Origin: a virus
Taxonomy: Duplodnaviria > Caudoviricetes
Reading direction: 5' to 3' (one strand)
IMG/VR virus record: IMGVR_UViG_3300020160_000355
Location: 1 to 54,111 of that record
Length of the DNA stretch: 54,111 nt
Each line of letters opens with the position of its first letter. The first letter of the stretch is position 1. Of the stretch, positions 5,303-54,111 are shown in pieces. The notes below the pieces were generated by a model that was not told the DNA's origin, made no database searches, and saw only the letters and a program-made list of their open reading frames with translations. Position numbers and translations under genes: made by a program.

Positions 5303-5311
5303 GGAAATCAA

Positions 5312-6223: not shown

Positions 6224-6288
6224 CAAATCAGTCTATAAACATACACACGTTTCCGTTATCATCAACACACTTACTGAAAGAAATCATC

Positions 6289-7952: not shown

Positions 7953-7954
7953 CT

Positions 7955-8566: not shown

Positions 8567-8567
8567 T

Positions 8568-9792: not shown

Positions 9793-9801
9793 GGCATTAC
9801 T

Positions 9802-11998: not shown

Positions 11999-12030
11999 CT
12001 TAAAGACTTTGGTCTTTGAGAGGAACCCCT

Positions 12031-13438: not shown

Positions 13439-13706
13439 TTGGGAGGCGGGGGTGAACGTAATCGCCCCCTACAGGTACACAAAGATTGGCAGCGGGTCTG
13501 ACTCGATTGGTACTCTCTTTGGTGCGCCCATTCCCTCTAACGTAACTGCGGTCACGATACAACAAGACGCGGTGAACTACCAACACAAAATCCGGTGGCG
13601 AGTTCGCAGTGACATAAGCGATGAAATCCATGAGATGGAATTGCCTGATGCAGCAACGAGAGAGCACATTCAAGCTGTGTTAACCGCAATGAGACTCACA
13701 TGCTAA
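13416..13706 (+). CDS. hypothetical protein
   Basis: Part of ORF 13317..13706. Start uncertain. Confidence 0.6.
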   Translation: MAVSTASDWEAGVNVIAPYRYTKIGSGSDSIGTLFGAPIPSNVTAVTIQQDAVNYQHKIRWRVRSDISDEIHEMELPDAATREHIQAVLTAMRLTC

Positions 13707-15265: not shown

Positions 15266-15327
15266 AAACCACTATACACACTCACTCAAATGATGGTAAC
15301 CTCCGTCCCCCTCACTGGAACATAACA

Positions 15328-15708
15328 ATGAAAATTTCAGAACTGGTAGCCAAGTACATTGAGCTACGCGATAAAAAAGCTGAGTTCAAAGCTGAGTACG
15401 AGAACAAAGTAGAGAAATTGGATACAGTCCTTAACCAGATTGAGTCCGCCTTACTTAAGACGTTCGAGACTACAGGTATGGACTCGGTCAAGACAGAGTT
15501 CGGTACGGCCTATACTACTGAACGCAGCACTGCTTCTGTGGCTGACAAGGACGCTTTCATGTCTTTCGTCAAGTCTCGTGAAGATTGGCATCTGATGGAA
15601 GTTCGCGCTTCTAAGACAGCCATCCAACAATACAAAGATGAACACCAAGACCTCCCGCCCGGTATCAACTGGCGCTCGGAGCGTGTGGTCAACATCCGTC
15701 GTTCGTAA
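15328..15708 (+). CDS. conserved replication-region hypothetical protein
   Basis: Coiled-coil N-terminus, SVKTEFGT, LPPGI. Confidence 0.8.
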   Translation: MKISELVAKYIELRDKKAEFKAEYENKVEKLDTVLNQIESALLKTFETTGMDSVKTEFGTAYTTERSTASVADKDAFMSFVKSREDWHLMEVRASKTAIQQYKDEHQDLPPGINWRSERVVNIRRS

Positions 15709-15734
15709 CCCTCAACCCACTGGAGAAAACTAAG

Positions 15735-16661
15735 ATGTCAAACATCATCCCATTCAACACCGATGCAGGTAACTTGCCTGCGTATTTGAAATCAGCTAAC
15801 CGCGCAGTTGTCAACGACGACTTGACCGCTCACGCTGGCACGGGCTTCCCCGTCATGTCCATCAAGGGCAAGAACTTCACGGTTGTCCGTGACGGCGAGC
15901 GCACTGTGCTCACTAAAGATGTGGACGGCGAGAAGATCGCAGTGCCATCAATCGAAGTCGTGTTGGTCAAAGCCAACAAGGGCACTTCCAAAGTGTTCTA
16001 CATCAAGGGCTACCAAGAAGGCGCTGAGGCTGTGAAGCCTGATTGCTTCTCTAACACTGGTGATCGTCCTGATTCATCTGTGGCCGAACCTCAAGCTAAG
16101 TCATGCGCTCTGTGCCCACACAACCAATGGGGCTCTAAGATCGGTGACAACGGCGGCAAAGGCAAGGCTTGCCAAGACAGCGTCCGTATGGCTATCGCTA
16201 CTGCTGACCAAATCAACGACCCCTACTTGTTGCGTGTGCCACCAGCATCCATCAAGTCTTTGGGTGAGTACGGCAAGATGCTCGCTAAGCGCGGTGTTGG
16301 CTACAACATGGTTGTGACCCGTATCGGATTCGACATGGAATCCCCAACTCCTAAGCTGACCTTCAAGCCTACAGGTTTGTTGAGCGACGCTGGCTATGCT
16401 CAAGTGCAAGAAGTTGCAGGTTCTGACGTTGTGTTGTCCATCTTGGGCGCTGACGGTATCGCTGCTGCTGCGGCCGCTGAGGCTGCTCCTGAGGAAGCAT
16501 TGCCAACTGTGGAAGTCAAGGCTGCTGCACCTGCCCCTGCTCCAGTAGCAGAGAAGCCAAAGGCTACCCCTAAACCAAAGGCTGAACCAGCACCTGTTGC
16601 TGCGGAACCACAGGTTGACATGGGTAACCTTAACCTCGACGACTTGAACTTCGACGACTAA
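15735..16661 (+). CDS. putative single-stranded DNA-binding protein
   Basis: Cys cluster (DC...CALC...AC), Ala/Pro linker and acidic tail LDDLNFDD. Located in the replication module. Confidence 0.65.
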   Translation: MSNIIPFNTDAGNLPAYLKSANRAVVNDDLTAHAGTGFPVMSIKGKNFTVVRDGERTVLTKDVDGEKIAVPSIEVVLVKANKGTSKVFYIKGYQEGAEAVKPDCFSNTGDRPDSSVAEPQAKSCALCPHNQWGSKIGDNGGKGKACQDSVRMAIATADQINDPYLLRVPPASIKSLGEYGKMLAKRGVGYNMVVTRIGFDMESPTPKLTFKPTGLLSDAGYAQVQEVAGSDVVLSILGADGIAAAAAAEAAPEEALPTVEVKAAAPAPAPVAEKPKATPKPKAEPAPVAAEPQVDMGNLNLDDLNFDD

Positions 16662-16724
16662 TGGTTTTCGGGGGGCTACGGGCAATCCCGCCCAGCTACA
16701 GTAGTAGTCCCCCTCCTTCCTTTC

Positions 16725-16746
16725 AGCCCTTCGGGGCTTTCACTTT
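16725..16746 (+). terminator. intrinsic terminator
   Basis: AGCCC-TTCG-GGGCT followed by TTCACTTT. A further stem lies upstream (16671-16679/16704-16712). Confidence 0.65.
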
Positions 16747-16757
16747 CTGGAGAAATC

Positions 16758-17009
16758 ATGTCATATCAAATTGACCAGCGCAAAGTCGCCGGTGTCGTAG
16801 TCGAAGCCAACCTAGCCCTCAGCGGCAAAGATTTCAACCACGGAGAAATCATCATCGGCTTAGCAGAGCTACTGGCCCGCGTCATTGTTGAGGCATCGGA
16901 TACGAACATCCAAGCGGGCGAATTGGTGAAAGTGGCTATGGCCCACATCGACCGCACTATTACCGTTGGCGCTCACGCCACAGGGAAATCAATCATCGCA
17001 AAGGCATAA
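16758..17009 (+). CDS. hypothetical protein
   Basis: GGAG RBS. Confidence 0.75.
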   Translation: MSYQIDQRKVAGVVVEANLALSGKDFNHGEIIIGLAELLARVIVEASDTNIQAGELVKVAMAHIDRTITVGAHATGKSIIAKA

Positions 17010-17010
17010 C

Positions 17011-20862: not shown

Positions 20863-23800
20863 TTAGATAATGTTCTTTACAAATTCTTTGTTGGACTTGC
20901 TAGTCTCCACACCTTCAACCACCCCAGCTTCTCGCTTGCGGGCAGCCACAGTGGCTTTAAACAACTCCGACATTGGTTGAATTTTATACCCATTGCGCTT
21001 ACGAGAAGCCTGTAATTCTTCCCAGTCCTTGCGGGCTTCAGCCATACCTTCAGTGTCACCATCGCGGTTAGCGTTGACATACGCACCTTTGATGGAAGCA
21101 GCGCGCTCCGTGTAGAACTGGTCAAACTCCATTGTCACCTTCTGGGCATATTGGCGGCCAGTAATCGTAGTCGTTGGCAGGCCAACAGCTTGGAACGCGG
21201 CATCCACCATGCTAATTTCTTCAGGCTTCAAGACTACATCGCCGTTGCGCATAGTCACACCTTCGTTGGCGTAGCGGACGCCCTTCATCGCATTGCCGAT
21301 ACCGTTGGGCATCAACAATTCCAGACCCTTGTAGTATTCACCCTTGGTCATCATGCCCGCGCCGTCGATCATCTTGGGGGCTAAGCCACCGAAGAATGGG
21401 CCCATCAAACCGACCATCACCTTTTCGTAGCCAGAGCGAGTGGACAAGTCCACATCAGTGAATGGCAGGATAGAAGCGACGTTACCCATACCCAACTTGC
21501 CGCCAAGGTTCACACCAGCCGCAGCAGGCACACCATTCAGGAGCAGATTGGCCATGGTCTCATCGCCAATGGCTTGACGCAGTTTGTACTCGAGGTCTTT
21601 TGGTTCATCATCGTCACCGAACGCGGCCAGCATCAAGCTAGCAACCTGTTGCACAAATGGCACACCAAGTGCACCGCCAACCACGGCCATGTGACCTGTG
21701 ATGAAAGCTAGAGCACGTCGAGCCACAACACGTTCCTCAGGACCTGCACCCTTGAAGGCTGTGTTGATGAGCTTGCCCAGCATAGAGAGCTGGATGATTT
21801 GGAAGCGCTTGAACTGACCGACCAAGCGGCCAGCGTCAGAGTTCAGGATACGTGGCGTGTTGAAACCATCGTACGAGCCGTGAGTGTTGGACACCACTTC
21901 GGCGGCAAACTTGGTAGCAGCATCAGTATTGCCAGCGCCGTAGCGTTGGATGTATCCACGGTAGGCAGCAATTGCAGCCGTTGCACGGTTTACAGCTTCA
22001 ATGCGGTTGTTCACACCTTGGAGTTTGCGCATTACTGTGTTCAGCACATTGTGCTCACCGGCACGAGCCTTAGCGTCAGCGTCGATACCAATGTCAATCT
22101 TGCCCATACCGACCAAGGTCTGGAGCATGGCGCGGACGTCAGCTGGAGCCTTGGCAAAGTCGATGTGCTCGTTGATAGTCAAGCCTTTAACCATTGCGGC
22201 CACATCACCGTACGCAGCTTTGATAGCGCGGACAGAGCGGAAGTAACCGAGACGGCCAGACATGTACGGCAGAGACAGCACAGTGGTTTGCAGCAACTGT
22301 TGCAGGTAGAACGCAGGGCTAGTGGACAGGAACCACACAGAGGTGGCCTGAGTCAGCGCTTGGCTCAATGGGGATGGAGTCTTGTACTCAAGGCTGGCAG
22401 TTTGGCGCTTGTACAGCTCGTTGTACAGCGGCATAGCCTCACGGACGTTCCGCTTGGCTTCAGTGCGCATGCGCTCAAGAGAATCCACCACGTCATCGTT
22501 ATGCTTCATGGTGCTCAGGAAATGAGCATCGGCTCGGCCAGATGTGGCCAAGTTACGCATCATGTTGGCGTTTGCACCGGACACATACTTGCGCATGATT
22601 TCCGATTTGCGGGCGCTGTTCTCAGCAGCAGTCATCAGATACAAGTCTGACACCATGCGATCTAGTTCAGCGTTACCCTCACCACTTTCGCCTTCTTGGC
22701 GAGCAATCAAGTTGCGCAGGCGGGCCACAGCAAGGTGAACATCAGAGCCAATGAAGGAACCAATATCTTCTTTGGGGCCAGCCTCAGAGCCGTCCATGTC
22801 GAACTTGCCAGTGGCCATGAGGTCCGCAGCAATTTGGTCAGCCTCACCTTGGGTCTCGGCAAACTGCACGACGTAGTGGTCAGGGTTAGAAACGTTGTCG
22901 GCCAACCATGCGGCGGCTCGCTCCTTGTTCTCACCCTTCTCAGCAGCAACACCTTCCCAGTACTTGAACTCCGCAGACTTAGCAGCCACCACGTAGTCGC
23001 CGTAACGACCGAGGTAAGCGTAAGGTGTGGTGAAGTCCACGTTCTGGATTTTGCTCAACTGGGTGCGCATCAGCTTCTTAGCCTGTGCCACTTCGGCCAT
23101 CAGGTCAGCGTCGCCATCAGCAGCCTTGGCGCGTTCGGCGAACTCGCGTTCAACCGCAGCATCAATAGCTTCCTTCTTAGCTTTGAGGGCTTGGTAGCCA
23201 TGCTCAAACACATCACGGATAACCTGTGCAGCCGCTGGAGACTCTTGCTCAATCGCAAAGAAGCGACGGCTCAACTCAGGGTCGACTTCAAACAAGGTTG
23301 TGCCGATGCGGTGTTCACCGGGATAGAAGCCCCACTTCTTACTCATGGTGGAGTCCAAGATGAAGCGGTTCACGCTACCAGCACCCTCACCTTGGAGGTG
23401 CTTAGGCAACTTGTCGAACGCATCCAAGATGTGCTCAATGCGTTGTTCAAAATCAAGGCGCGTCTTCTGGCGAGCATACTGTGCAGTCAGGTAGTCCTGA
23501 GCAGAGCGCATGTACTTACCAGCCATGTTGACGATGTCTTCAGTGATGCCAGCAGCCAGCAAACCGTTCTTAGCCGCAGTGGCCAAGTTGGTGATTACAG
23601 ATTTAGCAGGCTTCACCACCGAAGCGGGAAGCGTGTTCTCTAGGCCTTCGTTCAAGCGGGTAGACATTGACTTGCCAAAACGCATGCGGTCTTTATCCGC
23701 AGCAACTTGACCCCCCACTCGGAAGATGTTCTTGTCGTTGAACACCACGAGGTTGCGAGTTGGGTTACTCAGCTTAAGAATGCGTTTCTTGTCCTGCTCA

Positions 23801-26800
23801 ATTTCTTGGCGGAGCATTTCCACCGCAAACTCAGATGACGTGCGGCGGGCAACAGCAGCCAACCATGATGTATTCGCCTCGTCTTTGTACTGAGCAGGTG
23901 CGGTAGCGCTTTTCTTTTCCCATTTATCGGCGTACTCAGTATCCTGCGCCAATGTCCGTTCTTTTTCTTTGAGCAGTTCTTGCTTGTTTTTGAGGTTTGC
24001 CTCAGCAAACGTGACATCCCCACGGCTGTTCTGGTCTAAGAACTTGAGCGCAGGGATACCAATCTTCTCGTCCAAGTATGTGGACACAATTTGTTTTGTA
24101 CCAGCGCCGCGAAGGCGGCTGTTGTAGTCTTCTACCTCAAACTGCTCGCTAATAAGTCCTGAGCGTTTTTCCAAGACTCCGAGGGCGCGATAGAGCTCTT
24201 CGCCTGTCAGCTCGTCAAGCGATGCGTTGAGTTCATCTTCCAGTTCGGTGCGGATGGACTCACTCATGTTATCAACCAACCGTCTGAGGACGGCTGGCTG
24301 TTTTGTAAGAAGGGTGTTCCAGTCAAGAATGTCTTGGTCTTCGACTCCAACGTCGACGCGCATGAGGCTACCCTCAGGACGAGCCGTTTCATAGAACCAG
24401 TATGGGCGGCCAATTTGCAGAATTCGAGCTTGGCGATCAATCTCGGCCATGCTTAAAGGCTCATCAGTCCCTAGCTTTTCTTTTGCCCATGCATTGGCTT
24501 TTTCTAGGGTTTCAGCATCAGTACGAAGTGCCTTTGTATTTGCTTTGCGATCTACATCGTCAGCCCAGTACCCTTTGGCAACGCCAGCAGCTTGCGCAAG
24601 GTAGGAACCCCAACCAAACGCCTGTCTGCCTTCACCAGTACTCATAAACTTATGGCTAAATTTACGGAACGCAGCAGCCGTACCATGGTATGTGCCAGCC
24701 ATTTCTAGACGAGCCGCGCCAAACGCCATGTCCACTACGTCACGAGCAGTCATAGCCTCAGGACTAAAGCCTAACTTACGAACAGCAGCCTTAAATGCGG
24801 CCCACAAAGTGCGGAACCATAGATGGAGTGGGCCAATCGTTTTTGGAGCAGCCGTTGGGTCAATACCCATTTGCACTGCTTCCTCGATGAAGTACGCCAA
24901 CATCTCAGAACGACGGTCTTCTTGGACGGTGCCAGCGTTCATCACGCGCTCCGCAGCACGGACAGCTAACACTGACTCAATCGAGTTCTCGCCCTGCTTA
25001 GCCCAATTTACAATTTGCTGGGTAAGCTTGTCATACATTGCTTTAGGCAATAGATTCTCTAAGCCGACGTGAGCGCCGACTTCGTGCATGAACTTAGCAC
25101 GTCCTTGCCCTTTTTCAATTCGATTGGCTACTAGGTAAGCTCGGCCATTGCTAGCAACGCCATAAGCGCCCTCAATAGCCATCACTGCCCCAAGTTTCTG
25201 CACAGTCGGGTCAGTTGAACGGACAAGGGCTTCAATAGACTCAACCACCACCAGCTTACGAGCTGGAATAGGAGTGCGGATGAAGTCTTCAATTTCCTTA
25301 GTTAGCTCGGCGGAGGTGTAAGGATTCTTAGCACGGGCGTCGATACCAAATAAGGTCTTTTCTTCCTTACCAACGATGTTGCGCTCAGTGGATGCTTGAG
25401 TAACACCTTGGCGATTACCTGTAGTAGTCGTGGTCACGGGTTGGACCGACTGGCGAACCAGCTTGTCTTCACCGGTCTTGTTCTGGGCTACTGCACCAGT
25501 AACGAAGTCCATCACACGTTCTTGGTTGTCTGGCACAACGAACAGCTTAGCGCCGTCCATTTGTTGGCCGTAGTTGTCAATCAAGTTCTTGTATGTAGCC
25601 TTGTCCACGTTGATACAACCAAACGAGTAGCGCGAATCAGCAGCGTTCTCGTTCTTCAAGGCAGCGGTGCGCTTGGCGGCGTCATTCTCGTGGAGCCACA
25701 CGGAGTGCATGATGGTCAGTACACCGGGGTTCTCATCCACGATGCCAAACACCTTACCGAAATCGTACTCGCCAGCAGTCTTAGCCGCAGCGCCACCCTT
25801 GGCCGCATCCACCATTACGAGGTTGTGCAGACCAGCGGGAGTAACGCGGTTGGTTGGCAGGTCGTTGTTGCCTTTATAGAAGTCGCCCTTGGCCAAACCA
25901 AACAGAGATTTCTTCTCCAAGACCAGCTTGCCATCAGGTGTGAACACGAAGATACGGCCACTTGGCTTGTCAGCCATAACCAACAGCTTGTTCTTGGCGG
26001 TCAGGTCGGCCTTCAATGCAGGCATCAAAGTAGCGTAGGCTTGCTTAGCCGCAGTAGACATCTTGGCCGCAGCCTCCGCTGGAGCCTCAGCCTTCACCTC
26101 TTGGGTTACGCTGTATTCTTGCGCTGGGCTGACAGTGAACGCCTCAACCTTGTTCATGTATGTTGGGTTGAACACCACAGCCACAGCCAGCACGGCTGTG
26201 TAAAGTGCTTTGACGATGTCACGGATAGCTGCGTGAACCGCAGCAGCACCCTTGGCGGCATAGAGAGCGATGTCTCCGTGCAGCTTGGTCAGGAACTCAG
26301 ATGTGCCACGCTTAGCGTCATAGTGCTTCTCAAGGCGGATTGTCTGGCCTTCTGTCAGCTCGCTGACTGGGCCTTCCACCAAAACAGTCTGCTCTGGGGT
26401 CAGCTCCGTGGCCATACCTACATTGGATTCAGTTACCGCTTCAGTAGTTCCAACAGTGCTTGGTGCTTCCACGGGCTGCTCTTTGACAGCAGTATTAAGA
26501 ATCTTGTCGGCAGCCGCGAGATTAGCCACGCCACGATTTGCGACATCATCCCAGCGAATCTTTGCATCTTTGCTCAGGCTTTCGTAAGAAGGCATTGCAG
26601 GGAACTGCGCAGCCAGCTCAGCCCACTGTTCAGCGGGCGTCTTGATTACTTCTTCTTGCTTGGGCTCGACTTTGGCTTCGCTTTCGGTGGCAGCTTGGCC
26701 CCCTTCGGTGTTTCCTTGGCCCACCGTTTCGCTACTTCCGGCTCGTTCTTGAACAGGTACTTGCGCTGGGCTTGGCTCTTGAACGGCATTGGTCGGCTCC

Positions 26801-29800
26801 GTAGTGGTTGTGCGGCTGGCCATCTCAGCGTCGAGCTTCTTGGCCAGTGCTACGTTTTTAAACTTGTTGGCTTCATCCAGCAGTAACTGGAGCTCGCCCA
26901 TGTCGAACTTGGTCAGGTCGCCCTTAGTCTCTTTGAACTTGGCTTTCACAGCCTTGACTTCATCAGAGGCTTCGTTCTTTGTAGCAGTCGCAGTAGCGGT
27001 CGACTCACCAGCTGAAGCAGCAGCAAACTCTGCACGAGCGGCATCCAACTGAGTAAACAGCTTGACCTTCAATGCAGCATCTTGGTCAGTCATCTCGCTA
27101 GGCTTAGGCAGGTTGGCCAGCGCAGCTTCCAATGTACGAACGTGGTACTTGGCGTACTCAATGTTGAGTTGCTTCTGGATAGCGGCACGGCCTTCTACGT
27201 CGTCGGCAGCCAGCTTACCCATCTGGGTTTGCAGCTTCTCAATCTTGCCAAGGTCGGCTTTACGTTGTGTTTCCACTGCACCTTGACTACCGCCAGCAGA
27301 GGCCACTGTGCCCATGCTCTTGCCTTCTTGTTCCTCGCCACCATACAACTCGTCAGACAAGTACTTCGTGTTGTCAAAGTCTTGGCTCTCACCTTCAAAC
27401 TCAGCACGTTGCTGGTCGGAGATGGAGTCTTTCAGTGTGATGACACGGCGCGGAGTAACCAGCTCGAGCAGGTCACGGCGAGGGATACCTTGCGGGAACT
27501 CAGGCGATGTGTACGCATCCGCAGCACGTTGGAACAGAACATCCAGACGTTCGTACTGCTTAATTTTTCCGTTGCGTTGTACTTCTGGTTTTGGAGTCAC
27601 GCACTCATACTGTTCACTAGCAGCATCGTATGTAGCCGCGAGCCTAGAGACTGAGCGAGCGCGGTCTTCTGGAGTCACATCAGCAGTGATGCTGTCGGAC
27701 AGATACTTAGCTTGAGCAGCTTGTTTCTGTTCTTTGGATGGACGGGCAACGCCTTCCACCGTAACGTCTTCAACTCCAGCCAGAGCCTCGGCGGAGATAC
27801 CGAGGCGTTCAGCAATGGCAGCTCGGGTATCAAGGTTAGCCTGAGAATACTGTGGGCGCATCACAACACCCAAACGGCGAAGCTGGGCATCCACAGTGGT
27901 TAAGGACAGGCCGGTCAGTGCAGCAATTTCTGCCTCACTGGCTTGCTCAATCAGAGCAAGGCGCACCATCTCAATACGCTGTTCAAGCGTAGCCCCGCCT
28001 CGTTTTTCCTGAGTGGGGGTTAGAACCTGACGGTACAGGTTAGAGAGGATGTCGCCATCATGCTCTATTTTTTCAACGCTGGCGGCGGGGACTGCTTCTG
28101 TAGTTCCACCAGTTGTTGATGGAACGCTGACATCGGCGACTTGACCTGTTTGACCGGATACTTGCCCGCCATCACCCAGCCCTGTGGTAGTTTGGGTTTG
28201 TCCATCTGTGGCCCCGCTTACTTGCGGCGTGGCTTCGCCACCGACAACATTGGGTACATCTCCGGCGCTTGGCCGTACTCCGCCTGTTGATGGCTGTCCA
28301 GCTTGGACGTCAGACGGTCCCGCTCCGACACTTGTTGCTCCGACGGGTTGAACTTGAGCGGGTCGTACATCCCCAGCTGCTCCAGAGACTGCTTCTGTTG
28401 TTCCGCCTTCGACTGGTACTGTTCCCAGCCCGGTAGTTGTTTGCAATTGCAATTTGTCATTCTTAGCTCCTTTTGGTTGGACTTGCTGAGCAGCAGCATA
28501 GGCAGGGGCTTCCTGTCCAGTCAGTGCTTCGTACATCTGCGCCATCTGAGTCAGCTTGGCGTCGTTTGTGCCTTTACCCGCAGCAACCAGTTCGGTCATT
28601 GCAGTGTTGATGCCCTCGGCTACAGCGGCGAGGTCAGACTTGTTTGTCCAGAATTTCAGCGCCCCACCTTGGACGGCAGCAAGTTTGCGCTTCTCTGCGG
28701 GGAGTGTCTGCATATATGCAGCTTCAACCTTACGGCGCAGTTCAGATTTCTGGTCTTCGTTAGCAGCCAGCTTGTCTAGCTCGGCGTTGTACTTGGCGGG
28801 GTCGGTGAATGCCTTACCCATAATCATGCCGCCCACATGCTGGCCGTTGTCCAAAGTGGGTTCTGCACCAAAGTACGCGGCTACAGTATCGCGGCGCTCT
28901 TGCAATGCTTGAGCTTGTTGAGCTTGTTGGTCGGCAACCTGTTGGGCCTGCTGGTCAGCTTGTGCTTGTTGTTGAGCGGCGGCAATGTCTGTCGTACCGC
29001 CTGAGACTGCGGGAGCAGCAGGGGGGACTTGTTGTCCAGAGCTAACAGCGTCTGTAGTTGTAGGTGTGATTTCCGCAGGAGCAACTGGAGCGGATACCGG
29101 TGGGACAAACTGAGTTGTTGTGATGTCCGGCTGAGTAGTAGCTTTTGCCCCCATAGCCTGAGACAGCTCATTGCCACCTTCCGAACGACGCCATCCACCG
29201 CCGAGGCCACCAGCCATGCCACCTAAGGCAGCACCACCAATGAAGGACTCTTTGAACCGCTCTTGTGCAGCAGCACTGAGGAAAGCTTCGTTGGCGTCAA
29301 CCGACATACGACCAACTTGGTTGAGCATCTCTTGGCCAGTTTCAGAAGCACCTTCTTTAAGGGCTACACCAGTTGCAGTTGCAGCAGTACGAGCCGCAGC
29401 GCCGGTCAGGCCAGTACCACGGTCAAGAATGTTTACTGTGTTCTTAAAGGCAGTGCCACGAGCCAATGCAGACTCAATACCAACAGCGTTCAGTGCAGCG
29501 TACGGTACAGCTAAGGCAGCAGCGACACCACCACGGGTCTCACCAGATTGCTCACGTTGGTTGCCAAGAACATCGCCAACAGCAGATGGATAGGAGGCAG
29601 CAACAGCACCAGCTTGGGAGCCGGCGTTGAGCGCCTTAGTGGCGGCAGCTACACCCTCGACGTCTTTAGCCGCAGTTGCGGCAGTTAGCGCAGCACGAGT
29701 ACCGGACATAGCGCCACGGGCAAGTGCACCTCCAGCGATAGCCTCAGCTGCATAAGGGAGTGACTGGATAGCCAAACCTTTTGCGTAGCTACCGAAGTCG

Positions 29801-30144
29801 CCGACACCATGAACGTCTTTCCACTGGTCAACAGCGCCTAAGTCGCGTGCTCGTTTGGAAGCCTTATCAGCAAGGAACTCATTCTCTTCGCGCTGGGTTT
29901 TTAGCCATTCAGCGGAATCTTTAGCGCCGACACCTTCAGCGACAGCTTCGCCAACGCCATAAAGGCCGGCTTGGTATCGGTCGATGGAAGAAGAAATCTG
30001 GCTAGAGGTAAGTCCAGCCTGTGGCTTTGGGTTGAAATGCTCTTGCTCTAAGTCATCCCAGATGTTGGAAGAAGCTGGCTTTTCGTCCTTCTTCTTTTTC
30101 TCGGAGAACAGGTCGCGTTCGTACTCATCCCAAATATTAGCCAT
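20863..30144 (-). CDS. giant polyvalent internal virion/ejection protein (3093 aa)
   Basis: Single ORF. HTH-like motifs, L,D-transpeptidase-like H...SFGC, zincin HEVGAH, ART-like YHGT...GEGRQAFGWG, and a helical C-terminal region. Confidence 0.9.
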   Translation of the reverse strand: MANIWDEYERDLFSEKKKKDEKPASSNIWDDLEQEHFNPKPQAGLTSSQISSSIDRYQAGLYGVGEAVAEGVGAKDSAEWLKTQREENEFLADKASKRARDLGAVDQWKDVHGVGDFGSYAKGLAIQSLPYAAEAIAGGALARGAMSGTRAALTAATAAKDVEGVAAATKALNAGSQAGAVAASYPSAVGDVLGNQREQSGETRGGVAAALAVPYAALNAVGIESALARGTAFKNTVNILDRGTGLTGAAARTAATATGVALKEGASETGQEMLNQVGRMSVDANEAFLSAAAQERFKESFIGGAALGGMAGGLGGGWRRSEGGNELSQAMGAKATTQPDITTTQFVPPVSAPVAPAEITPTTTDAVSSGQQVPPAAPAVSGGTTDIAAAQQQAQADQQAQQVADQQAQQAQALQERRDTVAAYFGAEPTLDNGQHVGGMIMGKAFTDPAKYNAELDKLAANEDQKSELRRKVEAAYMQTLPAEKRKLAAVQGGALKFWTNKSDLAAVAEGINTAMTELVAAGKGTNDAKLTQMAQMYEALTGQEAPAYAAAQQVQPKGAKNDKLQLQTTTGLGTVPVEGGTTEAVSGAAGDVRPAQVQPVGATSVGAGPSDVQAGQPSTGGVRPSAGDVPNVVGGEATPQVSGATDGQTQTTTGLGDGGQVSGQTGQVADVSVPSTTGGTTEAVPAASVEKIEHDGDILSNLYRQVLTPTQEKRGGATLEQRIEMVRLALIEQASEAEIAALTGLSLTTVDAQLRRLGVVMRPQYSQANLDTRAAIAERLGISAEALAGVEDVTVEGVARPSKEQKQAAQAKYLSDSITADVTPEDRARSVSRLAATYDAASEQYECVTPKPEVQRNGKIKQYERLDVLFQRAADAYTSPEFPQGIPRRDLLELVTPRRVITLKDSISDQQRAEFEGESQDFDNTKYLSDELYGGEEQEGKSMGTVASAGGSQGAVETQRKADLGKIEKLQTQMGKLAADDVEGRAAIQKQLNIEYAKYHVRTLEAALANLPKPSEMTDQDAALKVKLFTQLDAARAEFAAASAGESTATATATKNEASDEVKAVKAKFKETKGDLTKFDMGELQLLLDEANKFKNVALAKKLDAEMASRTTTTEPTNAVQEPSPAQVPVQERAGSSETVGQGNTEGGQAATESEAKVEPKQEEVIKTPAEQWAELAAQFPAMPSYESLSKDAKIRWDDVANRGVANLAAADKILNTAVKEQPVEAPSTVGTTEAVTESNVGMATELTPEQTVLVEGPVSELTEGQTIRLEKHYDAKRGTSEFLTKLHGDIALYAAKGAAAVHAAIRDIVKALYTAVLAVAVVFNPTYMNKVEAFTVSPAQEYSVTQEVKAEAPAEAAAKMSTAAKQAYATLMPALKADLTAKNKLLVMADKPSGRIFVFTPDGKLVLEKKSLFGLAKGDFYKGNNDLPTNRVTPAGLHNLVMVDAAKGGAAAKTAGEYDFGKVFGIVDENPGVLTIMHSVWLHENDAAKRTAALKNENAADSRYSFGCINVDKATYKNLIDNYGQQMDGAKLFVVPDNQERVMDFVTGAVAQNKTGEDKLVRQSVQPVTTTTTGNRQGVTQASTERNIVGKEEKTLFGIDARAKNPYTSAELTKEIEDFIRTPIPARKLVVVESIEALVRSTDPTVQKLGAVMAIEGAYGVASNGRAYLVANRIEKGQGRAKFMHEVGAHVGLENLLPKAMYDKLTQQIVNWAKQGENSIESVLAVRAAERVMNAGTVQEDRRSEMLAYFIEEAVQMGIDPTAAPKTIGPLHLWFRTLWAAFKAAVRKLGFSPEAMTARDVVDMAFGAARLEMAGTYHGTAAAFRKFSHKFMSTGEGRQAFGWGSYLAQAAGVAKGYWADDVDRKANTKALRTDAETLEKANAWAKEKLGTDEPLSMAEIDRQARILQIGRPYWFYETARPEGSLMRVDVGVEDQDILDWNTLLTKQPAVLRRLVDNMSESIRTELEDELNASLDELTGEELYRALGVLEKRSGLISEQFEVEDYNSRLRGAGTKQIVSTYLDEKIGIPALKFLDQNSRGDVTFAEANLKNKQELLKEKERTLAQDTEYADKWEKKSATAPAQYKDEANTSWLAAVARRTSSEFAVEMLRQEIEQDKKRILKLSNPTRNLVVFNDKNIFRVGGQVAADKDRMRFGKSMSTRLNEGLENTLPASVVKPAKSVITNLATAAKNGLLAAGITEDIVNMAGKYMRSAQDYLTAQYARQKTRLDFEQRIEHILDAFDKLPKHLQGEGAGSVNRFILDSTMSKKWGFYPGEHRIGTTLFEVDPELSRRFFAIEQESPAAAQVIRDVFEHGYQALKAKKEAIDAAVEREFAERAKAADGDADLMAEVAQAKKLMRTQLSKIQNVDFTTPYAYLGRYGDYVVAAKSAEFKYWEGVAAEKGENKERAAAWLADNVSNPDHYVVQFAETQGEADQIAADLMATGKFDMDGSEAGPKEDIGSFIGSDVHLAVARLRNLIARQEGESGEGNAELDRMVSDLYLMTAAENSARKSEIMRKYVSGANANMMRNLATSGRADAHFLSTMKHNDDVVDSLERMRTEAKRNVREAMPLYNELYKRQTASLEYKTPSPLSQALTQATSVWFLSTSPAFYLQQLLQTTVLSLPYMSGRLGYFRSVRAIKAAYGDVAAMVKGLTINEHIDFAKAPADVRAMLQTLVGMGKIDIGIDADAKARAGEHNVLNTVMRKLQGVNNRIEAVNRATAAIAAYRGYIQRYGAGNTDAATKFAAEVVSNTHGSYDGFNTPRILNSDAGRLVGQFKRFQIIQLSMLGKLINTAFKGAGPEERVVARRALAFITGHMAVVGGALGVPFVQQVASLMLAAFGDDDEPKDLEYKLRQAIGDETMANLLLNGVPAAAGVNLGGKLGMGNVASILPFTDVDLSTRSGYEKVMVGLMGPFFGGLAPKMIDGAGMMTKGEYYKGLELLMPNGIGNAMKGVRYANEGVTMRNGDVVLKPEEISMVDAAFQAVGLPTTTITGRQYAQKVTMEFDQFYTERAASIKGAYVNANRDGDTEGMAEARKDWEELQASRKRNGYKIQPMSELFKATVAARKREAGVVEGVETSKSNKEFVKNII

Positions 30145-50670: not shown

Positions 50671-52071
50671 TCAGGTCCACACGTAGTTGGATTTCTGTAC
50701 TGTGACTGCCTTGCGGCCCCAAGCATCGCCTGTGACGTTTCCATCAGCGTGCAGACACGCGTACTGATGGGCATCTGCAATGTGGGAGTGTGAGTTTTTC
50801 TCGGGCTTATCGTCCGTCTCACCATTCTGACGGATTTTATACCTATATCCGCCTCGGAGTGCAGCAATTAATTTTGTACAGCTTGGGTCGATCAAATGAC
50901 CGGGCTTACCGTCTACTGTTCGAGTGAGCATCGAATCGACTGCGTTAACTCGCGCCACCACGCTGTTCGTACGCGCTGGGATGACTCGAAACCCCTCTTG
51001 TTTGAGGATATCGAACACCGACCGCTCGTCAGTCTGCGCCCGCTGTTGGCCGGCAGGGTCACCAATAATAAGCACGTTCATGCCCGGAAAACGGTTAGCC
51101 AGCAACGGTTTGAGCTTCTCGCGGCAGAACCGCAGCGTGCCCATACCCTCTGAGGTCAGGTCAGCAAAAGTCAGCAATCGACCCTGCGCGTCAACTTGGT
51201 TGATCGTGCATGCAGGTGTAAGCCCGAAGTCCATCCCAATGATGAGCGGGTGGGTCTGGAGCTTGATATGGTTCAGAGTCTTCTCTGCCACATGTGTCTC
51301 TTTGTCAAACGCTCGGAACACCGGCTGGCCTGAGAGCGAACGTCCGAACTTACCGTGTACGTAGACGTCAATCCAGTCTTCGGACTTGCCTTCGCACAAG
51401 TTCTCGTAGTAGCCGTCAGGCAGGAACTGTACCCAGTCCGCTTCCTGCGCCAAGCCACTAGGCTGCATCGTGACGTGCATGTTGTCAGGCGGGTCGTTCA
51501 GTAAGGTTTCCCAGAACGTATCAGCGTCCGGCGGGTTGGTAGCGCCCCACACCTTGTGAATCTGCTTGCCGTTGTCATCGCAAGCACCCACACCGTTCAT
51601 CGTCTTATCGGGATAGCGACCAAGACGACCAGTAAGAGCGTTGTAAATGTCAGGGTTGATCTCTCGAAACTCGTCCATGACGCCAAAGGTGAGCTGGAGG
51701 GACAAAAGACGTCGAGCATCATTAGCATCGTCCAGACCACGAAATAGGACTTCGCACTCCACATCATCAAACTTAAGCAGAAACTTAGAGTTCGTTTTCT
51801 CCAATATGCCAGCTTCTCCATCTGGATACCATTTCAAAAAGTCCGGGATGGTGGTGTCCCACAGCATCTGACGGGTGTTACGAATAACAGCACAGCGCGA
51901 ACGACGGATGCCGTCCGGCCCTGCCTTGATACGTGCAGCCTCGTAGCCGATCTTAATCAACGACGCGGTTGTCTTGGTAGAACCCACCGGGCCCACGATG
52001 AAGTTCGCGAACTTGTCCGATGTCAGGAATGGGACCACCGACAGGGGTGGTGTGTAGACAAGGTTAGCCAT
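50671..52071 (-). CDS. terL: terminase large subunit
   Basis: Walker A GPVGSTKT, Walker B GVMDE, nuclease motifs GMDFG, GDPAG, HIADAHQY. Confidence 0.95.
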   Translation of the reverse strand: MANLVYTPPLSVVPFLTSDKFANFIVGPVGSTKTTASLIKIGYEAARIKAGPDGIRRSRCAVIRNTRQMLWDTTIPDFLKWYPDGEAGILEKTNSKFLLKFDDVECEVLFRGLDDANDARRLLSLQLTFGVMDEFREINPDIYNALTGRLGRYPDKTMNGVGACDDNGKQIHKVWGATNPPDADTFWETLLNDPPDNMHVTMQPSGLAQEADWVQFLPDGYYENLCEGKSEDWIDVYVHGKFGRSLSGQPVFRAFDKETHVAEKTLNHIKLQTHPLIIGMDFGLTPACTINQVDAQGRLLTFADLTSEGMGTLRFCREKLKPLLANRFPGMNVLIIGDPAGQQRAQTDERSVFDILKQEGFRVIPARTNSVVARVNAVDSMLTRTVDGKPGHLIDPSCTKLIAALRGGYRYKIRQNGETDDKPEKNSHSHIADAHQYACLHADGNVTGDAWGRKAVTVQKSNYVWT

Positions 52072-52555
52072 CTATGGTGATCGGAGTTGGGCCGGGGGCC
52101 TGTGGGATGTTGATGGTGATAGAAAACTTTGGCGCAGAAGCTATAGACGTGTCGACTGCCTTTTTGTCAGGCTTCAAGCCGGCTACATCCACGAGTGAGT
52201 TGAACACACTCAGCTTCTGCATGATTGACGTGTCGTTGGCGATGGCCTGTTTGAACATCTGGCTCATCATCTCTTCAGCCATCAGACCAGCCTTGAGCCG
52301 GAACGTCATGCCATTACGCTCAAACTCAGCGCGCTGGTTCTGAACTGCATGGATGAACGGTGGCCACTGCTGTAAGCGCTCCCACTTCTCGCCACTGAAA
52401 CCAAAGCGAGCTGCTACGTCGGTCGGATTCTCCAGCCCCGCAGCGCACTCCCACACCAACTGGGGCGGGATGTCTAGGGTGACATGAGGTTCACTGGCTT
52501 GAGGTGAGAGCGCGAACTCTTGGTGGTCTGCGAAGTGGTCGAGGTCGTTACTCAT
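52064..52555 (-). CDS. terS: terminase small subunit
   Basis: Directly upstream of and overlapping terL. HTH-like N-terminus, FSITINI C-terminal strand. Confidence 0.7.
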   Translation of the reverse strand: MSNDLDHFADHQEFALSPQASEPHVTLDIPPQLVWECAAGLENPTDVAARFGFSGEKWERLQQWPPFIHAVQNQRAEFERNGMTFRLKAGLMAEEMMSQMFKQAIANDTSIMQKLSVFNSLVDVAGLKPDKKAVDTSIASAPKFSITINIPQAPGPTPITIDG

Positions 52556-52679
52556 ACTTCTTCAACCCGTCGGTCAGGATGCGTCGAATCAGTTCAGACA
52601 TGGTCAGCCCAGTGCGCTCCGCTTCTTTGCGCAGTGCATCCACGACCTGTTCGGGTAGGAAGAAGTTGTAGCGTTTCAT
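52548..52679 (-). CDS. ribbon-helix-helix (CopG/Arc-like) DNA-binding protein, 43 aa
   Basis: Read manually: MKRYNFFLPEQVVDALRKEAERTGLTMSELIRRILTDGLKKYE. TGATG coupling. Not in the ORF track. Confidence 0.85.
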   Translation of the reverse strand: MKRYNFFLPEQVVDALRKEAERTGLTMSELIRRILTDGLKKYE

Positions 52680-52951
52680 CAGTCGAGCTTCAAATCACTA
52701 AGGTCTGGGAGGCCGGCGTCCACTGGGGCGGCTTTAGGTTCGCGTGGTTTACGCACCTTCGGAGCTGGGGGCGGGGTTTCTTGCTTGAGGGTCAAAGCTT
52801 CCAGCTGGGGTTTGCCCTGCTCTTGGATTTTGCGCATCAGCGTGTTGACTTCATCGTATGTGTACGTCGCCTGACGAGCAGACTGGAACAGCACAAATGC
52901 CATGTCGATTTCTTGGATGGTGAGCTCTAGCTTGAGGGTAGGGGTATTCAT
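52679..52951 (-). CDS. hypothetical protein
   Basis: ORF in the late operon. Confidence 0.75.
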   Translation of the reverse strand: MNTPTLKLELTIQEIDMAFVLFQSARQATYTYDEVNTLMRKIQEQGKPQLEALTLKQETPPPAPKVRKPREPKAAPVDAGLPDLSDLKLD

Positions 52952-52952
52952 A

Positions 52953-53174
52953 TTATTTTTTGCCTTTTGCGTACGCAGCTGTTGAGAGCTTGCCAGATTT
53001 CAGGGCCTTGCCAGTTTTCATAGCACCTTTGCCCTCGCCTTCCATCTTCTCACCCTTTGCATACTGCGCGGGGGTGATCTTGCCGGACTTGACGGCTTTA
53101 GCTTCTTTGCGTTCTTCGGCTGGAGTGTCCTTGCCTTTGAACAGATTCTTCAGTGCTGGTTTGGGAATTGCCAT
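52953..53174 (-). CDS. small Lys-rich basic protein
   Basis: AAGGAG RBS before MAIPKP. Duplicated KA[VL]KSGK[IL]...YAKG motif. Confidence 0.75.
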   Translation of the reverse strand: MAIPKPALKNLFKGKDTPAEERKEAKAVKSGKITPAQYAKGEKMEGEGKGAMKTGKALKSGKLSTAAYAKGKK

Positions 53175-53201
53175 TTGGTGCTCCTTGTGAATGACGTGTG
53201 T

Positions 53202-53231
53202 ATGGTACACGGGAATAAGTATTCAATGCAA
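53202..53231 (-). promoter_or_regulatory. putative late-operon promoter
   Basis: TTGCAT-N18-TACCAT on the - strand. Confidence 0.45.
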
Positions 53232-53449
53232 CTTTTTAGGTTTACAACGTGTGGCGAATGTGTGTATGTACTAAAAAACGACCTTTGTTGCGTGTGCGAT
53301 ACGTAAAACAGGCGGGGGGTCCCTCGTGTCCGTGTCCCTCCCCCCACCCCTACCCCGTTGTATTGTTGAAACCTCTAGTGGGTAGTAAGCAAGACAACGA
53401 AAAGGTTGTATCGCTGAAACCCCTTGTGAGGGTATCGCCCCTCGCTGAA

Positions 53450-53464
53450 TGTTCCTTAAAAACT
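53450..53464 (+). promoter_or_regulatory. boxA-like antitermination motif 1
   Basis: TGTTCCTTAAAAACT resembles rrn boxA TGCTCTTTAACA. Confidence 0.5.
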
Positions 53465-53548
53465 GATTGTCTGAATGTTTGCTTACGGCTTCGTGTCGTG
53501 GCGGGCGGTTTCGAGCCGCAATAACGGGTAGGTCAATCGGTGGAGCAA

Positions 53549-53563
53549 TGTCTTTAAAAATTT
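53549..53563 (+). promoter_or_regulatory. boxA-like antitermination motif 2
   Basis: TGTCTTTAAAAATTT, just upstream of the candidate ncRNA. Confidence 0.5.
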
Positions 53564-53576
53564 GAATTTGAATCCT

Positions 53577-53950
53577 TGGGGCTTACAACCCGAGACGGGT
53601 ACGAAGTAGACGAAGATACCCTGACAGCATTGATTGTGTCCGTGCGCCTAGTGGAATAGGTGCTTAGGGCTAGGCTCTGTTGTGCGAATGAGCAGTATGA
53701 ATCCCATGCCATTGTGCGAGTAGATTGGCGACAGTAGTGTCGTATTGAAACCACAAATTAGCGTATGGCGGCAACTCGGAAGGCGCGCACCACAACCTAG
53801 ACCACCGACAATCTTACGCAACACGCTTCAGCGGTGCGAGACCGTGGAGTGGAGTCGAATCTAATGGAAAGACATTAGTCAGTAGCGCCGACTGTAAAAC
53901 GGGCGATGAGGTGGCAACCCTAGTACCGAGAACAGAAAACCTAGGCTCCA
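53577..53950 (+). ncRNA. candidate large structured ncRNA (~370 nt)
   Basis: Closing helix 53577-85/53942-50 plus many nested helices with G-U pairs on the + strand. No credible ORF. Confidence 0.6.
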
Positions 53951-53985
53951 GCCCGCTAGGTTATGAGACTAGCGGGCTTTATTGT
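53950..53985 (+). terminator. terminator-like hairpin after the candidate ncRNA
   Basis: Perfect 10-bp stem AGCCCGCTAG/CTAGCGGGCT followed by TTATTGT. Confidence 0.6.
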
Positions 53986-54037
53986 GTGTATTCAATCCCG
54001 AGTGCATACAACGAAGCTAACTAACTGGAGAATTTTC

Positions 54038-54111
54038 ATGAACGCAATCGACACAATCACTTTCGCCCCTGCAATCATCAATGTTGAGGGCAAAACCGCG
54101 ACTGAGCGCAA
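54038..54111 (+). CDS. first early gene, truncated by the window end
   Basis: GGAG RBS, then ATG and MNAIDTITFAPAIINVEGKTATER, open to the end. Confidence 0.7.
   Translation, partial: MNAIDTITFAPAIINVEGKTATER

Follow-up and report, generated by a model that had tools for sequence, protein, structure and literature searches.

What kind of element separates the divergent late operon of an uncultured phage from its early operon, and does it work as a free RNA or as part of the early transcript? The question is raised by the IMG/VR record IMGVR_UViG_3300020160_000355 (Caudoviricetes), whose 54,111 nucleotides, referred to as the window in the following, form a linear contig with an estimated completeness of 93%. 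The early operon runs off the contig end, and the + strand genes at positions 1–20000 probably continue it. Within the 828-nt gap between the two operons, a preliminary description had placed a large noncoding RNA at 53577–53985, which was thought to possess its own closing stem and terminator and was compared to the ornate phage RNAs GOLLD and ROOL. The + strand from about 53549 to 54010 is indeed a real, conserved, folded and protein-free RNA of an uncultured freshwater phage, and its predicted location, where the early transcription unit begins and ahead of the early genes, was confirmed. Instead of forming a closed ornate fold, the RNA consists of successive local hairpins and one long irregular arm. 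It represents a new RNA family.

For the comparative analysis 29 distinct full-length homologs from uncultured phage contigs were aligned, and divergent members were found in addition. In the 5' pattern scan 13 of 36 matches were unrelated and were dropped; twelve of these represented one coding motif, which we take to be terminase-like. Over the whole structure 82.4% of 1718 cells were paired, compared with 35.6–40.5% after sliding of the partners, and compensatory changes occurred in 46 of 80 pairs. The covariation score was 0.260 versus 0.131 for shuffled alignments, and none of 500 shuffles reached the observed value. The 3' module was 92.1% paired and showed compensatory changes in 16 of its 17 pairs. 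It had been argued from imperfect positions that selection acts on a + strand RNA; the alignment fits this, G-U combinations in helix cells being commoner than A-C (210 vs 80), and the leader has the same orientation as the downstream gene. The earlier statement that no credible ORF is present proved correct as well: the longest + strand ORF of the window leader comprises 39 aa, and the longest ORFs across the 29 homologs (16–83 aa) begin at inconsistent points.

We also searched for relationships to described RNAs. With the window, cmscan against Rfam 15 gave no match at the gathering threshold, in accordance with the initial failure to assign the RNA to a known family, and the leaders of five relatives were likewise without an Rfam 15 match. 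When E values up to 10 were admitted for 53150–54111, two sub-threshold matches were obtained, one to a snoRNA (13 bits) and one to Trp_leader, the latter covering the T1 hairpin alone, which was aligned with the terminator of the Trp leader (16 bits vs a threshold of 41, E 3.3). A tRNA and tmRNA search found none, GenBank phages contained no DNA match to 53200–54111 at blastn sensitivity, and copies of the region elsewhere in the window were limited to short matches with E 0.14 or worse. Neither this RNA nor boxA-led structured phage leaders are described in the open-licence papers and bioRxiv preprints searched.

Table 1. Features of the leader region in 5' to 3' order (positions of the window; pairing and compensatory changes refer to the homolog alignment)
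Feature	Position	Strand	Characteristics
Upstream hairpin (GUGAGGG-UAUCGC-CCCUCGC)	53426–53445	+	window fold; about 6 nt 5' of first boxA-like box
First boxA-like box GTTCCTTAAAA	53451–53461	+	10/11 positions of GYTCTTTAANA; pattern match 53453–53462
Second boxA-like box TGTCTTTAAAAATT	53549–53562	+	positions 3–11 of GYTCTTTAANA all match; 9/11 over 53549–59
P1 hairpin (CUUGGG/CCCGAG)	53575–53594	+	88.6% paired; compensatory 5/6 pairs
P2 hairpin (GGGUA/UACCC plus C:G)	53597–53625	+	99.4% paired; compensatory 4/6 pairs
Long irregular arm P3–P7	53632–53813	+	covariation and window centroid fold
P3	53632–37/53808–13	+	outer 3 pairs 90.7% paired, inner 3 65.7%
Clade-specific insert hairpin	53644–63	+	in 4/29 homologs; 100% paired
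P4	53667–74/53796–803	+	7 different stems for the CTAGG/CCTAG part
P5	53680–84/53791–95	+	at least 5 different stems among relatives
Inner arm helices	53707–16/53752–70	+	positional analogue in relatives
P7 capping hairpin, GWAG loop	53728–43	+	compensatory 5/6 pairs
P8 12-pair hairpin with bulged G	53823–53852	+	strongest support of all helices, with 12 additional pair types over 8 pairs; compensatory 7/12
P9 hairpin	53861–53878	+	97.8% paired; compensatory 5/6; near-invariant GGAAAGAC over closing G:C pair and loop
P10 hairpin CGCC(G)/(C)-G-GGCG with bulged G	53886–53905	+	97.9% paired; compensatory 5/5
P11 hairpin, conserved 14-nt loop motif RCCRAGAMCAGMAA	53919–53945	+	stem varies freely; compensatory 6/6 pairs
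T1, G+C-rich 10-bp hairpin, then CUUUAUUG	53950–53985	+	terminator-like; hairpin itself 53950–53978, perfect
T2 12-bp hairpin	53985–54010	+	segment z = −7.6; pair 475:488 CG/GC/UG; by-eye alignment
SD (GGAG) and ATG (54038–54040) of first early gene	54027–54040	+	aligned, fixed spacing after T2, 29/29 homologs

Of the eleven helices proposed by eye, eight are supported by covariation in the homologs, a ninth is ambiguous and the remaining two are unsupported. The first group consists of GATTGT/ACAATC (P3), GCGCCTA/TAGGTGC (the clade-specific insert hairpin), CTAGG/CCTAG (P4), TTGTG/CACAA (P5), GCGACA/TGTCGT (P7), GCGGT/ACCGT, which turned out to be a part of the longer P8, CTAATG/CATTAG (97–98% paired) and the perfect 10-bp hairpin of T1, which is supported by covariation; P3, P4, P6, P7 and the insert hairpin also appear in the centroid fold of the window. 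The ambiguous helix, TGCCAT/ATGGCG, pairs in the window and has a positional analogue in relatives, but is 55% paired on the current alignment. The postulated closing stem 53577–85/53942–50 received no support, being 45% paired, no better than shuffles, and clashing with two covarying local hairpins, and AGTCG/CGACT is displaced by the covarying hairpin CGCC/GGCG (P10).

Comparison of the individual hairpins in the relatives showed which parts vary and which are kept. The upstream hairpin site has differing stems (GAGAG/CUCUC, GGTAG/CTACC, AGATG/CATCT and others) with a (C)AUCG(Y) loop, as read by eye and uncounted. P1 occurs in three stem classes with loops of 8 or 6 nt, and P2 has the near-invariant loop GAARUAGNCGARG and is then followed by an invariant UGAC with C or U before it. 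The P8 loop is GCGAG in the window and GCAAG or GAAAG in relatives, some of which carry a CGG-UAAGAAU-CCG variant; the fifth pair of P10 is GC in 13, CG in 11 and AU in five homologs. The P11 loop motif is present in 24 of the 29 homologs on about 13 different stems, 22 of the 24 with at least 4 bp. T1 was skipped by the terminator scan owing to its loop of 9 nt versus a tool maximum of 8, and its U tract comprises 5 U in 8 nt in the window and 2–6 U in the first 8 nt of relatives, many of which have a weaker tract (CUUCAGUG, CAUCAUAG), so that there may be little to antiterminate. T2, whose G/U-rich 5' arm adjoins T1 directly, is conserved with different stems in relatives. Loop-loop and loop-SD pairings were sought by eye, and none of them covaries.

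The folding energy, which had been suggested as a check, gave a different picture. For 53577–53985 it was no better than for shuffled sequences on either strand (z = −1.0 on the + strand, −1.2 on the − strand), and the values for P1–P2 (z = −1.4) and P8–P11 (z = −0.6) were insignificant as well, while the central arm had no excess stability (z = +0.6). The segment 53946–54040 at the 3' end alone stood out (z = −7.6). Thermodynamics on its own would have discarded a real RNA.

The second characteristic element is the box in front of the first hairpin. The 12-mer TCNTTAAMAATT is invariant in 29/29 homologs and lies 12–13 nt 5' of this hairpin. We found the box heading the early operon in 31 of 47 TerL loci that included 2.5 kb or more of upstream sequence, and in reversed orientation in none (0/47); it is also present in loci with a different, shorter leader class. 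A further, upstream box was likewise read in relatives, and the 10-mer TCNTTAAMAA occurs twice in the 54-kb window, both times inside the leader. The box resembles boxA, the NusB/NusE site, whose consensus is GYTCTTTAANA according to excerpts of PMC5725501. Over 50 distinct contexts, scored with eight positions forced by the search pattern, 37 phage boxes match this consensus at 9/11 positions, 12 at 10 and one at 8. The unforced G1 is present in 38/50 contexts, position 2 is a pyrimidine in only 15/50 and position 5 is T in only 8/50. Positions 4 and 6, double mutation of which abolished SuhB recruitment (excerpts of PMC5725501), are invariant among phage boxes. In the Aquifex complex, as described in a part of PMC3177189, a boxA pyrimidine contacts NusB via O2; the commonest phage box has a purine there (A 34/50, G 7/50), which speaks against boxA.

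Two relatives (L103 and L032) carry exactly the related 12-mer TCTTTAACAATT, which occurs four times in a betaproteobacterial (Undibacterium) genome and not once as its reversed control. The sites are located in the rrn leader, in the 16S-23S spacer, 5' of a tRNA cluster and, for the fourth, on C4; the same genome holds a relative with 62% TerL identity. The relaxed 12-mer was found at chance level in two bacterial genomes (11 matches vs 13 for the control), located in A/T-rich spacers away from any rRNA or tRNA, and the identification of the box as boxA is therefore an argument from likeness and position.

The genomic surroundings were analyzed for further indications of function. The leader is retained although the first early gene changes from locus to locus. 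Among the window ORFs scanned we detected no phage RNA polymerase, and the unscanned ORFs are too small for a T7-type enzyme. A sigma-70 promoter scan of 53150–54111 returned no sites and none could be placed by eye, so that transcription of the box can only be presumed. Terminator-like sites in the early region (1–20000) were no commoner than in shuffles (15 vs a mean of 18.3). Leader and box are absent from the TerL relatives in the bacterial genome records L148–L152. Among the sequencing runs, six had a sampled-word share of 0.09–0.23, and the four that were compared gave short contigs only. One contig of a freshwater metatranscriptome (X2; 500 nt, about 88% identical) spans 53508–54007 and neither flank. 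It hints at expression weakly at best, because it is a single contig at a depth of 4.8 and contigs break at strain variation; uncovered parts are uninformative. TerL relatives were detected in a 5-kb contig assigned to a Fluviibacter MAG (97%) and inside an Undibacterium contig (62%); the titles of these two records suggest freshwater betaproteobacteria as hosts.

From box, fold and position we consider the chances about even that the RNA is a cis-acting leader of the early operon which recruits host Nus factors for antitermination. The stretch would then be the core of an untranslated, structured 5' leader of about 490–590 nt on the + strand, transcribed by the host RNA polymerase, in which two boxA-like boxes, P1, P2, the arm P3–P7, P8–P11, T1, T2 and the ribosome binding site of the first gene would follow one another. 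NusB/E is recruited by boxA (excerpt of PMC12360218), and the boxA-like RNA may recruit host NusB and NusE (S10), which together with NusA and NusG would convert the polymerase into a processive form resisting Rho and terminators, as in rrn operons and at lambda nut. In this way the long untranslated leader would be shielded from Rho and the polymerase would pass T1 into the early operon, and the conserved hairpin loops are candidates for places where polymerase, Nus factors or a phage protein could dock. Excerpts of PMC5725501 and PMC12360218 also describe contexts in which boxA promotes Rho termination or represses translation.

The putative leader was compared with known systems. With the rrn antitermination signals (boxB-boxA-boxC; NusA/B/E/G, S4, SuhB) it shares a boxA-like box 5' of a long untranslated structured transcript, for which host polymerase is proposed here, and the presence of two tandem boxes, the rrn boxes being situated before 16S and before 23S (PMC10250234, in excerpt; Undibacterium rrn). 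In addition, the G/U-rich UUGUGUGU after T1 forms a helix strand, as does boxC UCUGUGUGGG in the same excerpt. According to this source, boxA is necessary and sufficient for formation of the rrn antitermination complex, which leaves about 430 nt of conserved structure unexplained. The phage leader differs from rrn in that protein genes and no rRNA or tRNA lie downstream, that most members deviate from the box consensus at positions 2 and 5, that a leader-trailer helix is missing, and that the folded part resembles rrn leaders neither in sequence nor by model (no Rfam match). The lambda nut sites (boxA, boxB, boxC, N) resemble it as part of a phage early operon, in the succession of box, 12–13 nt spacer and hairpin, and in a putative terminator downstream to be read through. 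In contrast to nut, the P1 loop is unlike what we take to be the boxB-type pentaloop, no N-like protein was found, the variable first gene being without a PHROG family, and about 400 nt of further conserved structure have no nut counterpart.

Like HK022 putL and putR, the leader is a folded RNA of a phage early region with two adjacent stem-loops (P1 and P2, 1–2 nt apart), and it could act in cis without a phage protein. Put is a two-stem RNA immediately 3' of an early phage promoter that binds the beta' zinc-binding domain of the polymerase, acts without Nus factors and suppresses intrinsic as well as Rho-dependent terminators, as far as described in excerpts of PMC9378689. Compared by description only, put measures about 70 nt and has no boxA, whereas the leader of about 430 nt is about six times larger. 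With GOLLD and ROOL it has in common the large, conserved, protein-free phage RNA with many covarying helices; it differs by the lack of a cmscan match at E up to 10, by the lack of multi-way junctions closed by long-range stems, and by its fixed place in the 5' UTR of an operon. A more far-reaching version of the Nus-recruiting leader appears doubtful to us, namely a class of large cis-acting antiterminators in which the box would load Nus factors and the array of about 430 nt would stay on the host polymerase, a mimicry of rRNA operons without a phage protein that would yield fast and Rho-proof early transcription. According to an excerpt of PMC10250234, modification by N doubles the elongation rate of the polymerase.

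It is possible, though on the whole somewhat unlikely, that the RNA is a discrete, stable and trans-acting ncRNA of about 420–500 nt, made in bulk from an early promoter and ending at T1 or cut at T1/T2, whose conserved loops would bind a factor of the host or the phage, or titrate it, while any boxA would only protect the long untranslated RNA from Rho or aid its folding. At least six hairpins with conserved loops on freely varying stems are typical of ligand- or protein-binding RNAs, and the size and conservation surpass the known needs of boxA antitermination (PMC10250234, in excerpt). In the window the unit ends with a G+C-rich hairpin, after which 5 of 8 nt are U, but the tract is poor in many members, and the metatranscriptome contig, which gives a weak hint by covering exactly 53508–54007, extends 22 nt beyond the T1 tail. 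In the loci examined the unit invariably heads the early operon, and in sister phages this site is occupied by a much shorter leader, with 135–230 nt from box to ATG, so the large RNA is dispensable for the function of the site. Because of the weak U tract in many relatives, the presence of T2 and of SD and ATG at fixed spacing in 29/29 homologs, and the boxA-like site 5', the evidence favours a cis-acting leader over a free ncRNA.

We regard it as unlikely that the box is a DNA element, either a -10-like promoter core (AAMAAT) or the site of a DNA-binding protein of phage or host, in which case the RNA would start at about 53568 just 5' of P1 and the tandem boxes would be tandem promoters. 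AAAAAT and AACAAT, which the box contains, do have the A at position 2 and the T at position 6 needed by -10 hexamers, 12–13 nt before the first helix is a natural distance to a start site, the two copies stand in tandem about 100 nt apart, and the commonest variant deviates from boxA at the contacted position. Nevertheless, a conserved -35 is missing, as are sites in the promoter scan, and the 12 invariant positions including TC-TT exceed the needs of a -10 and coincide with boxA 3–11. The exact host rrn-type 12-mer in two lineages and, weakly, the start of the RNA-library contig 43 nt 5' of the box also speak against a DNA element.

A sensing attenuator, in which the leader would bind a metabolite, a tRNA or a protein and set termination at T1 or exposure of the SD according to the host state, is very unlikely. 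Riboswitches and protein-binding leaders usually show the arrangement seen here, a structured domain with a terminator-like hairpin and SD directly behind it, and CUCCAG at 53946–51 can pair with the SD in the window clade (by eye also in L003 and L105); this pairing is, however, limited to one clade, no conserved antiterminator pairing with T1 was seen, Rfam gave no riboswitch match, and the variable first gene makes autoregulation by its product improbable. Finally, a DNA-level element (replication origin, packaging site or genome end) with inverted repeats that mimic RNA helices is extremely unlikely, since, although phage origins and genome ends often sit in such gaps between divergent operons and the contig is linear and nearly complete, G-U is tolerated on the + strand only, conserved single-stranded loops on freely varying stems are a signature of RNA, and direct repeats or iterons were not found in the self-comparison.

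Even should the boxA interpretation fail, the covariation implies a functional RNA at the very start of infection, and the new RNA family, which numbers more than 29 distinct members and has several conserved loops, is well supported. If the interpretation as a Nus-recruiting leader is right, lytic-type phages of freshwater betaproteobacteria seize the host rRNA antitermination machinery, and this takeover would proceed via a short RNA signal and a large dedicated fold rather than via a protein of the lambda N type. The biology of boxA and Nus factors would then no longer be confined to rRNA, lambdoid phages and a small number of cellular genes, and if the array indeed stays on the polymerase, a podovirus reliant on the host polymerase might also enter the cell with its genome more rapidly.

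The gene-free gap between the two divergent gene units of this phage encodes a real RNA on the + strand, composed of a row of hairpins and one long arm, which lies ahead of the first early gene. With roughly even confidence we read it as a cis-acting, structured leader of the early operon, whose boxA-like sites would load host Nus factors.

For the collection of homologs, 281 relatives of TerL were retrieved from IMG/VR and 80 loci were kept. By blastn the whole gap was matched by only one locus (L003, 87% identity) and the centre appeared variable elsewhere; nhmmer revealed full-length homology in several further loci, and a first alignment of nine sequences already displayed compensatory changes in local hairpins. 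Searching IMG/VR with the 5' motif yielded 36 hits, comprising 23 real and 13 unrelated ones (12 of these 13 represent one coding motif), while 15 hits came from a metagenome scan and 30 from a scan with the 3' motif. De-duplication left 29 distinct full-length homologs with 339-497 nt between the boxA-like 12-mer (box) and the ATG; about ten further loci have kept the 3' half and diverge in the 5' half.

The structure scored on these 29 sequences combines those helices of a preliminary description that held with newly derived ones (P1 to P11 in 5' to 3' order). Standard pairs occupied 82.4% of 1718 cells; after sliding the 3' partners by 1-3 columns the share was 35.6-40.5%, and column shuffles gave 70.9%, none of 500 being as high as the real value. 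Changes on both sides were found in 46 of 80 pairs, and the covariation score was 0.260 (0.05-0.07 slid, 0.131 shuffled). MAFFT misaligned P5 and P11. In anchored tables, P4 showed seven different stems and P5 at least five, and in 24 of 29 sequences a conserved loop motif of 14 nt is enclosed by P11 stems of around 13 different kinds. With a covariance model of P9-P10-P11, 30 distinct matches at E up to 0.01 were recovered from 100 sources; in their alignment, which is model-fitted and thereby favours the structure, 92.1% of cells were paired, 16 of 17 pairs were compensatory and the covariation score was 0.72 (0.19 shuffled, 0.015-0.11 slid). Since G-U cells exceed A-C cells in the helices (210 vs 80), the + strand is the functional one.

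The conserved structured + strand RNA of the preliminary description is thus borne out by covariation and the G-U excess, its listed pairings exist exactly as written, and the leader indeed lacks a credible ORF (+ strand maximum 39 aa; across homologs 16-83 aa at unrelated positions). Its closed, ornate fold gave way to the hairpin row and a single long irregular arm formed by the central 180 nt (P3-P4-P5 to P6-P7). The proposed closing stem 53577-85/53942-50 clashes with P1 and P11, and the AGTCG/CGACT helix with P10; of TGCCAT/ATGGCG only a positional analogue persists in relatives. Scored jointly, these three were paired in 48.4% of cells vs 48.5% in shuffles. The expected advantage in folding energy was not found for 53577-53985 against dinucleotide shuffles (z = -1.0 on the + and -1.2 on the - strand); for 53946-54040 the energy lies far below that of shuffles (z = -7.6).

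Positions of genes, sequence elements and helices in the window, with pairing statistics for the helices
Feature	Position	Strand	Details
ATPase and DUF2201/VWA-like protein	518-1522 and 3416-4591	+	ATPase PHROG 1297; DUF2201 metallopeptidase-like
DarB-like protein	20863-30144	-	3093 aa; C-terminal 750 residues match antirestriction PHROG 10089, E 6e-55
TerL	50671-52071	-	
TerS	52064-52555	-	
Three small ORFs between terS and gap	52548-53174	-	43 aa, 90 aa, lysine-rich 73 aa
Conserved block	53247-53357		ends in G run, then very C-rich, G-poor tract
C-rich tract	53325-53357		CCCTCCCCCCACCCCTACCCC
First box	53451-61	+	10-mer at 53453
Second box	53549-62	+	10-mer at 53551
P1			88.6% paired; 5/6 pairs compensatory
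P2			99.4%; 4/6
Insert hairpin	53644-63	+	100%; 3/7; in only 4 sequences
P4			86.4%; 5/7
P7			81.5%; 5/6
P8			83.9%; 7/12
P9			97.0%; 4/6
P10			94.9%; 2/4
T1	53950-53978	+	G+C-rich hairpin, covaries
T2	53985-54010	+	second conserved hairpin
ATG of first early gene	54038-54040	+	gene continues past contig end

The linear IMG/VR record (54,111 nt, estimated completeness 93%) carries structural genes leftward on the - strand (the DarB-like protein, an internal virion protein, portal, TerL, TerS and three small ORFs) and replication-type genes rightward on the + strand at 1-20000 (ATPase, DUF2201 protein, family A DNA polymerase, SNF2 helicase, DUF927 protein); the gap between both units measures 828 nt by the ORF-list bounds. 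The DarB-like protein is a giant, probably injected protein of a 54-kb podovirus-like genome, and the ATPase with the neighbouring DUF2201/VWA-like protein may form a paired ATPase/VWA module. No PHROG family was found for the three small ORFs, the lysine-rich one of which is kept by many relatives at 50-70% identity, nor for the first early gene, which varies by locus (the window's version occurs in only 6 of 80 TerL loci). No RNA polymerase was detected among the ORFs scanned, and every unscanned ORF is too small for a T7-type enzyme; the phage is presumably transcribed by the host polymerase. Sole host hints are a 5-kb contig with 97% TerL identity binned in a betaproteobacterial MAG (L148, Fluviibacter sp.) and a 62% TerL relative within a large chromosomal 627-kb contig of Undibacterium sp. 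(L149), a setting that suggests prophages among the relatives. The conserved block at 53247-53357 is kept in many TerL loci without the long RNA (13 loci, blastn) and could contain the late-operon promoter, or a + strand Rho-loading tract before the boxA-like boxes.

At the 3' end, the tail of the terminator-like hairpin T1 (CUUUAUUG in the window, CUUCAGUG or CAUCAUAG in many relatives) doubles as the 5' arm of T2, and beyond T2 all 29 sequences have a Shine-Dalgarno (SD) sequence and an ATG at a fixed distance. From a freshwater metatranscriptome run one 500-nt contig was obtained (about 88% identical), which covers 53508-54007 and neither flank, includes the second box and extends past T1. 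It is an expression hint at most, because strain variation interrupts contigs and DNA is present in RNA libraries. That the leader is a discrete RNA acting in trans, to which such a bounded contig would be congenial, we regard as possible but unlikely; the fixed spacing to the first gene is common to all homologs.

The 12-mer TCNTTAAMAATT is invariant in every homolog, 12-13 nt 5' of P1, and the 10-mer TCNTTAAMAA occurs in the window only in the two boxes of the gap. Of the 47 TerL loci that extend 2.5 kb or more upstream, 31 contained the strict 12-mer within 4 kb in early-operon orientation and none in the opposite one. Many box-bearing loci lack a homolog of the long RNA and possess a shorter leader class instead, which makes the box the best-conserved element at the head of this phage group's early operon. 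Its sequence is similar to that of boxA, the binding site of NusB/NusE: the window's boxes agree with the gamma-proteobacterial consensus GYTCTTTAANA (PMC5725501) at 10 and 9 of 11 positions, and G1 was present in 38 of 50 distinct contexts although the search pattern left it free. Positions 4 and 6, whose double mutation is described to abolish SuhB recruitment (PMC5725501), are invariant in the phage boxes. Exact TCTTTAACAATT was found in two lineages (L103 and L032) and four times in the Undibacterium genome that also holds the 62% TerL relative (reversed control: zero). Of these four copies, one precedes the 16S gene by about 195 nt, a second falls between the spacer tRNAs and the 23S gene, a third precedes a tRNA cluster and the fourth is on contig C4. 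Against boxA, most contexts (34 of 50) have A at position 5, only 15 of 50 satisfy Y2, the position that varies in the phage boxes is occupied in the Aquifex complex by a pyrimidine that contacts NusB (PMC3177189), and a relaxed box pattern occurred in bacterial genomes at chance level only. A box serving as a promoter element, for which its distance of 12-13 nt from P1 might speak, appears rather improbable.

The shorter leaders (135-230 nt from box to ATG) share one plan of box, hairpins, terminator-like helix, final hairpin and SD. Their carriers (L012, L013, L014, L020, L022, L023, L030, L031, L040, L041, L055, L067, L071 and L072) have the same box, then a hairpin whose loop reads UUUGGGUGAAGUAA, a long-range helix with UUUU at its end, the final hairpin and SD. 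This class probably represents another new RNA family whose role matches that of the long leader.

In the Rfam check that the preliminary description had proposed, no family of Rfam 15 matched the leader at gathering thresholds, and with E values up to 10 the only returns were a 16-bit alignment of T1 to the Trp-leader terminator and a 13-bit snoRNA hit. Neither tRNA genes, nor a match of the leader region in GenBank phages, nor a second copy within the window were found. The leader RNA has no Rfam family, and no description of it turned up in the main text of openly available papers; it is rated as a new RNA family and as a variant of an established type of system, namely early-operon leaders of the boxA, nut and put type. 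Locus L022 contains, directly upstream of terS, an above-threshold match to the Rhizobiales sRNA Atu_At1 (RF02496; L022:5083-5188, + strand; 69.3 bits vs gathering 60), a hit without counterpart in the window.

In the window's clade CUCCAG (53946-51) can pair with CUGGAG (54025-54030), which contains the first gene's SD; versions of 7-8 bp exist in L003 and L105 and none in other clades. A sensing attenuator, in which such pairing could take part, is very improbable, and a DNA element, beside compensatory changes and G-U pairs, is hardly credible.

Precedents for a cis-acting early-operon leader are the rrn operons and the lambda nut sites. NusB/E is reported to be recruited by boxA (PMC12360218). 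Assembly of the rrn antitermination complex is described as requiring boxA, which also suffices for it, and the N complex as elongating at twice the normal rate (PMC10250234); in HK022 put, folded RNA alone brings about antitermination (PMC9378689). A role for a fold of about 430 nt does not follow from these precedents. In a leader of this kind, host Nus factors would be loaded at the candidate boxA-like sites, and early transcription would become resistant to Rho and terminators and possibly faster.
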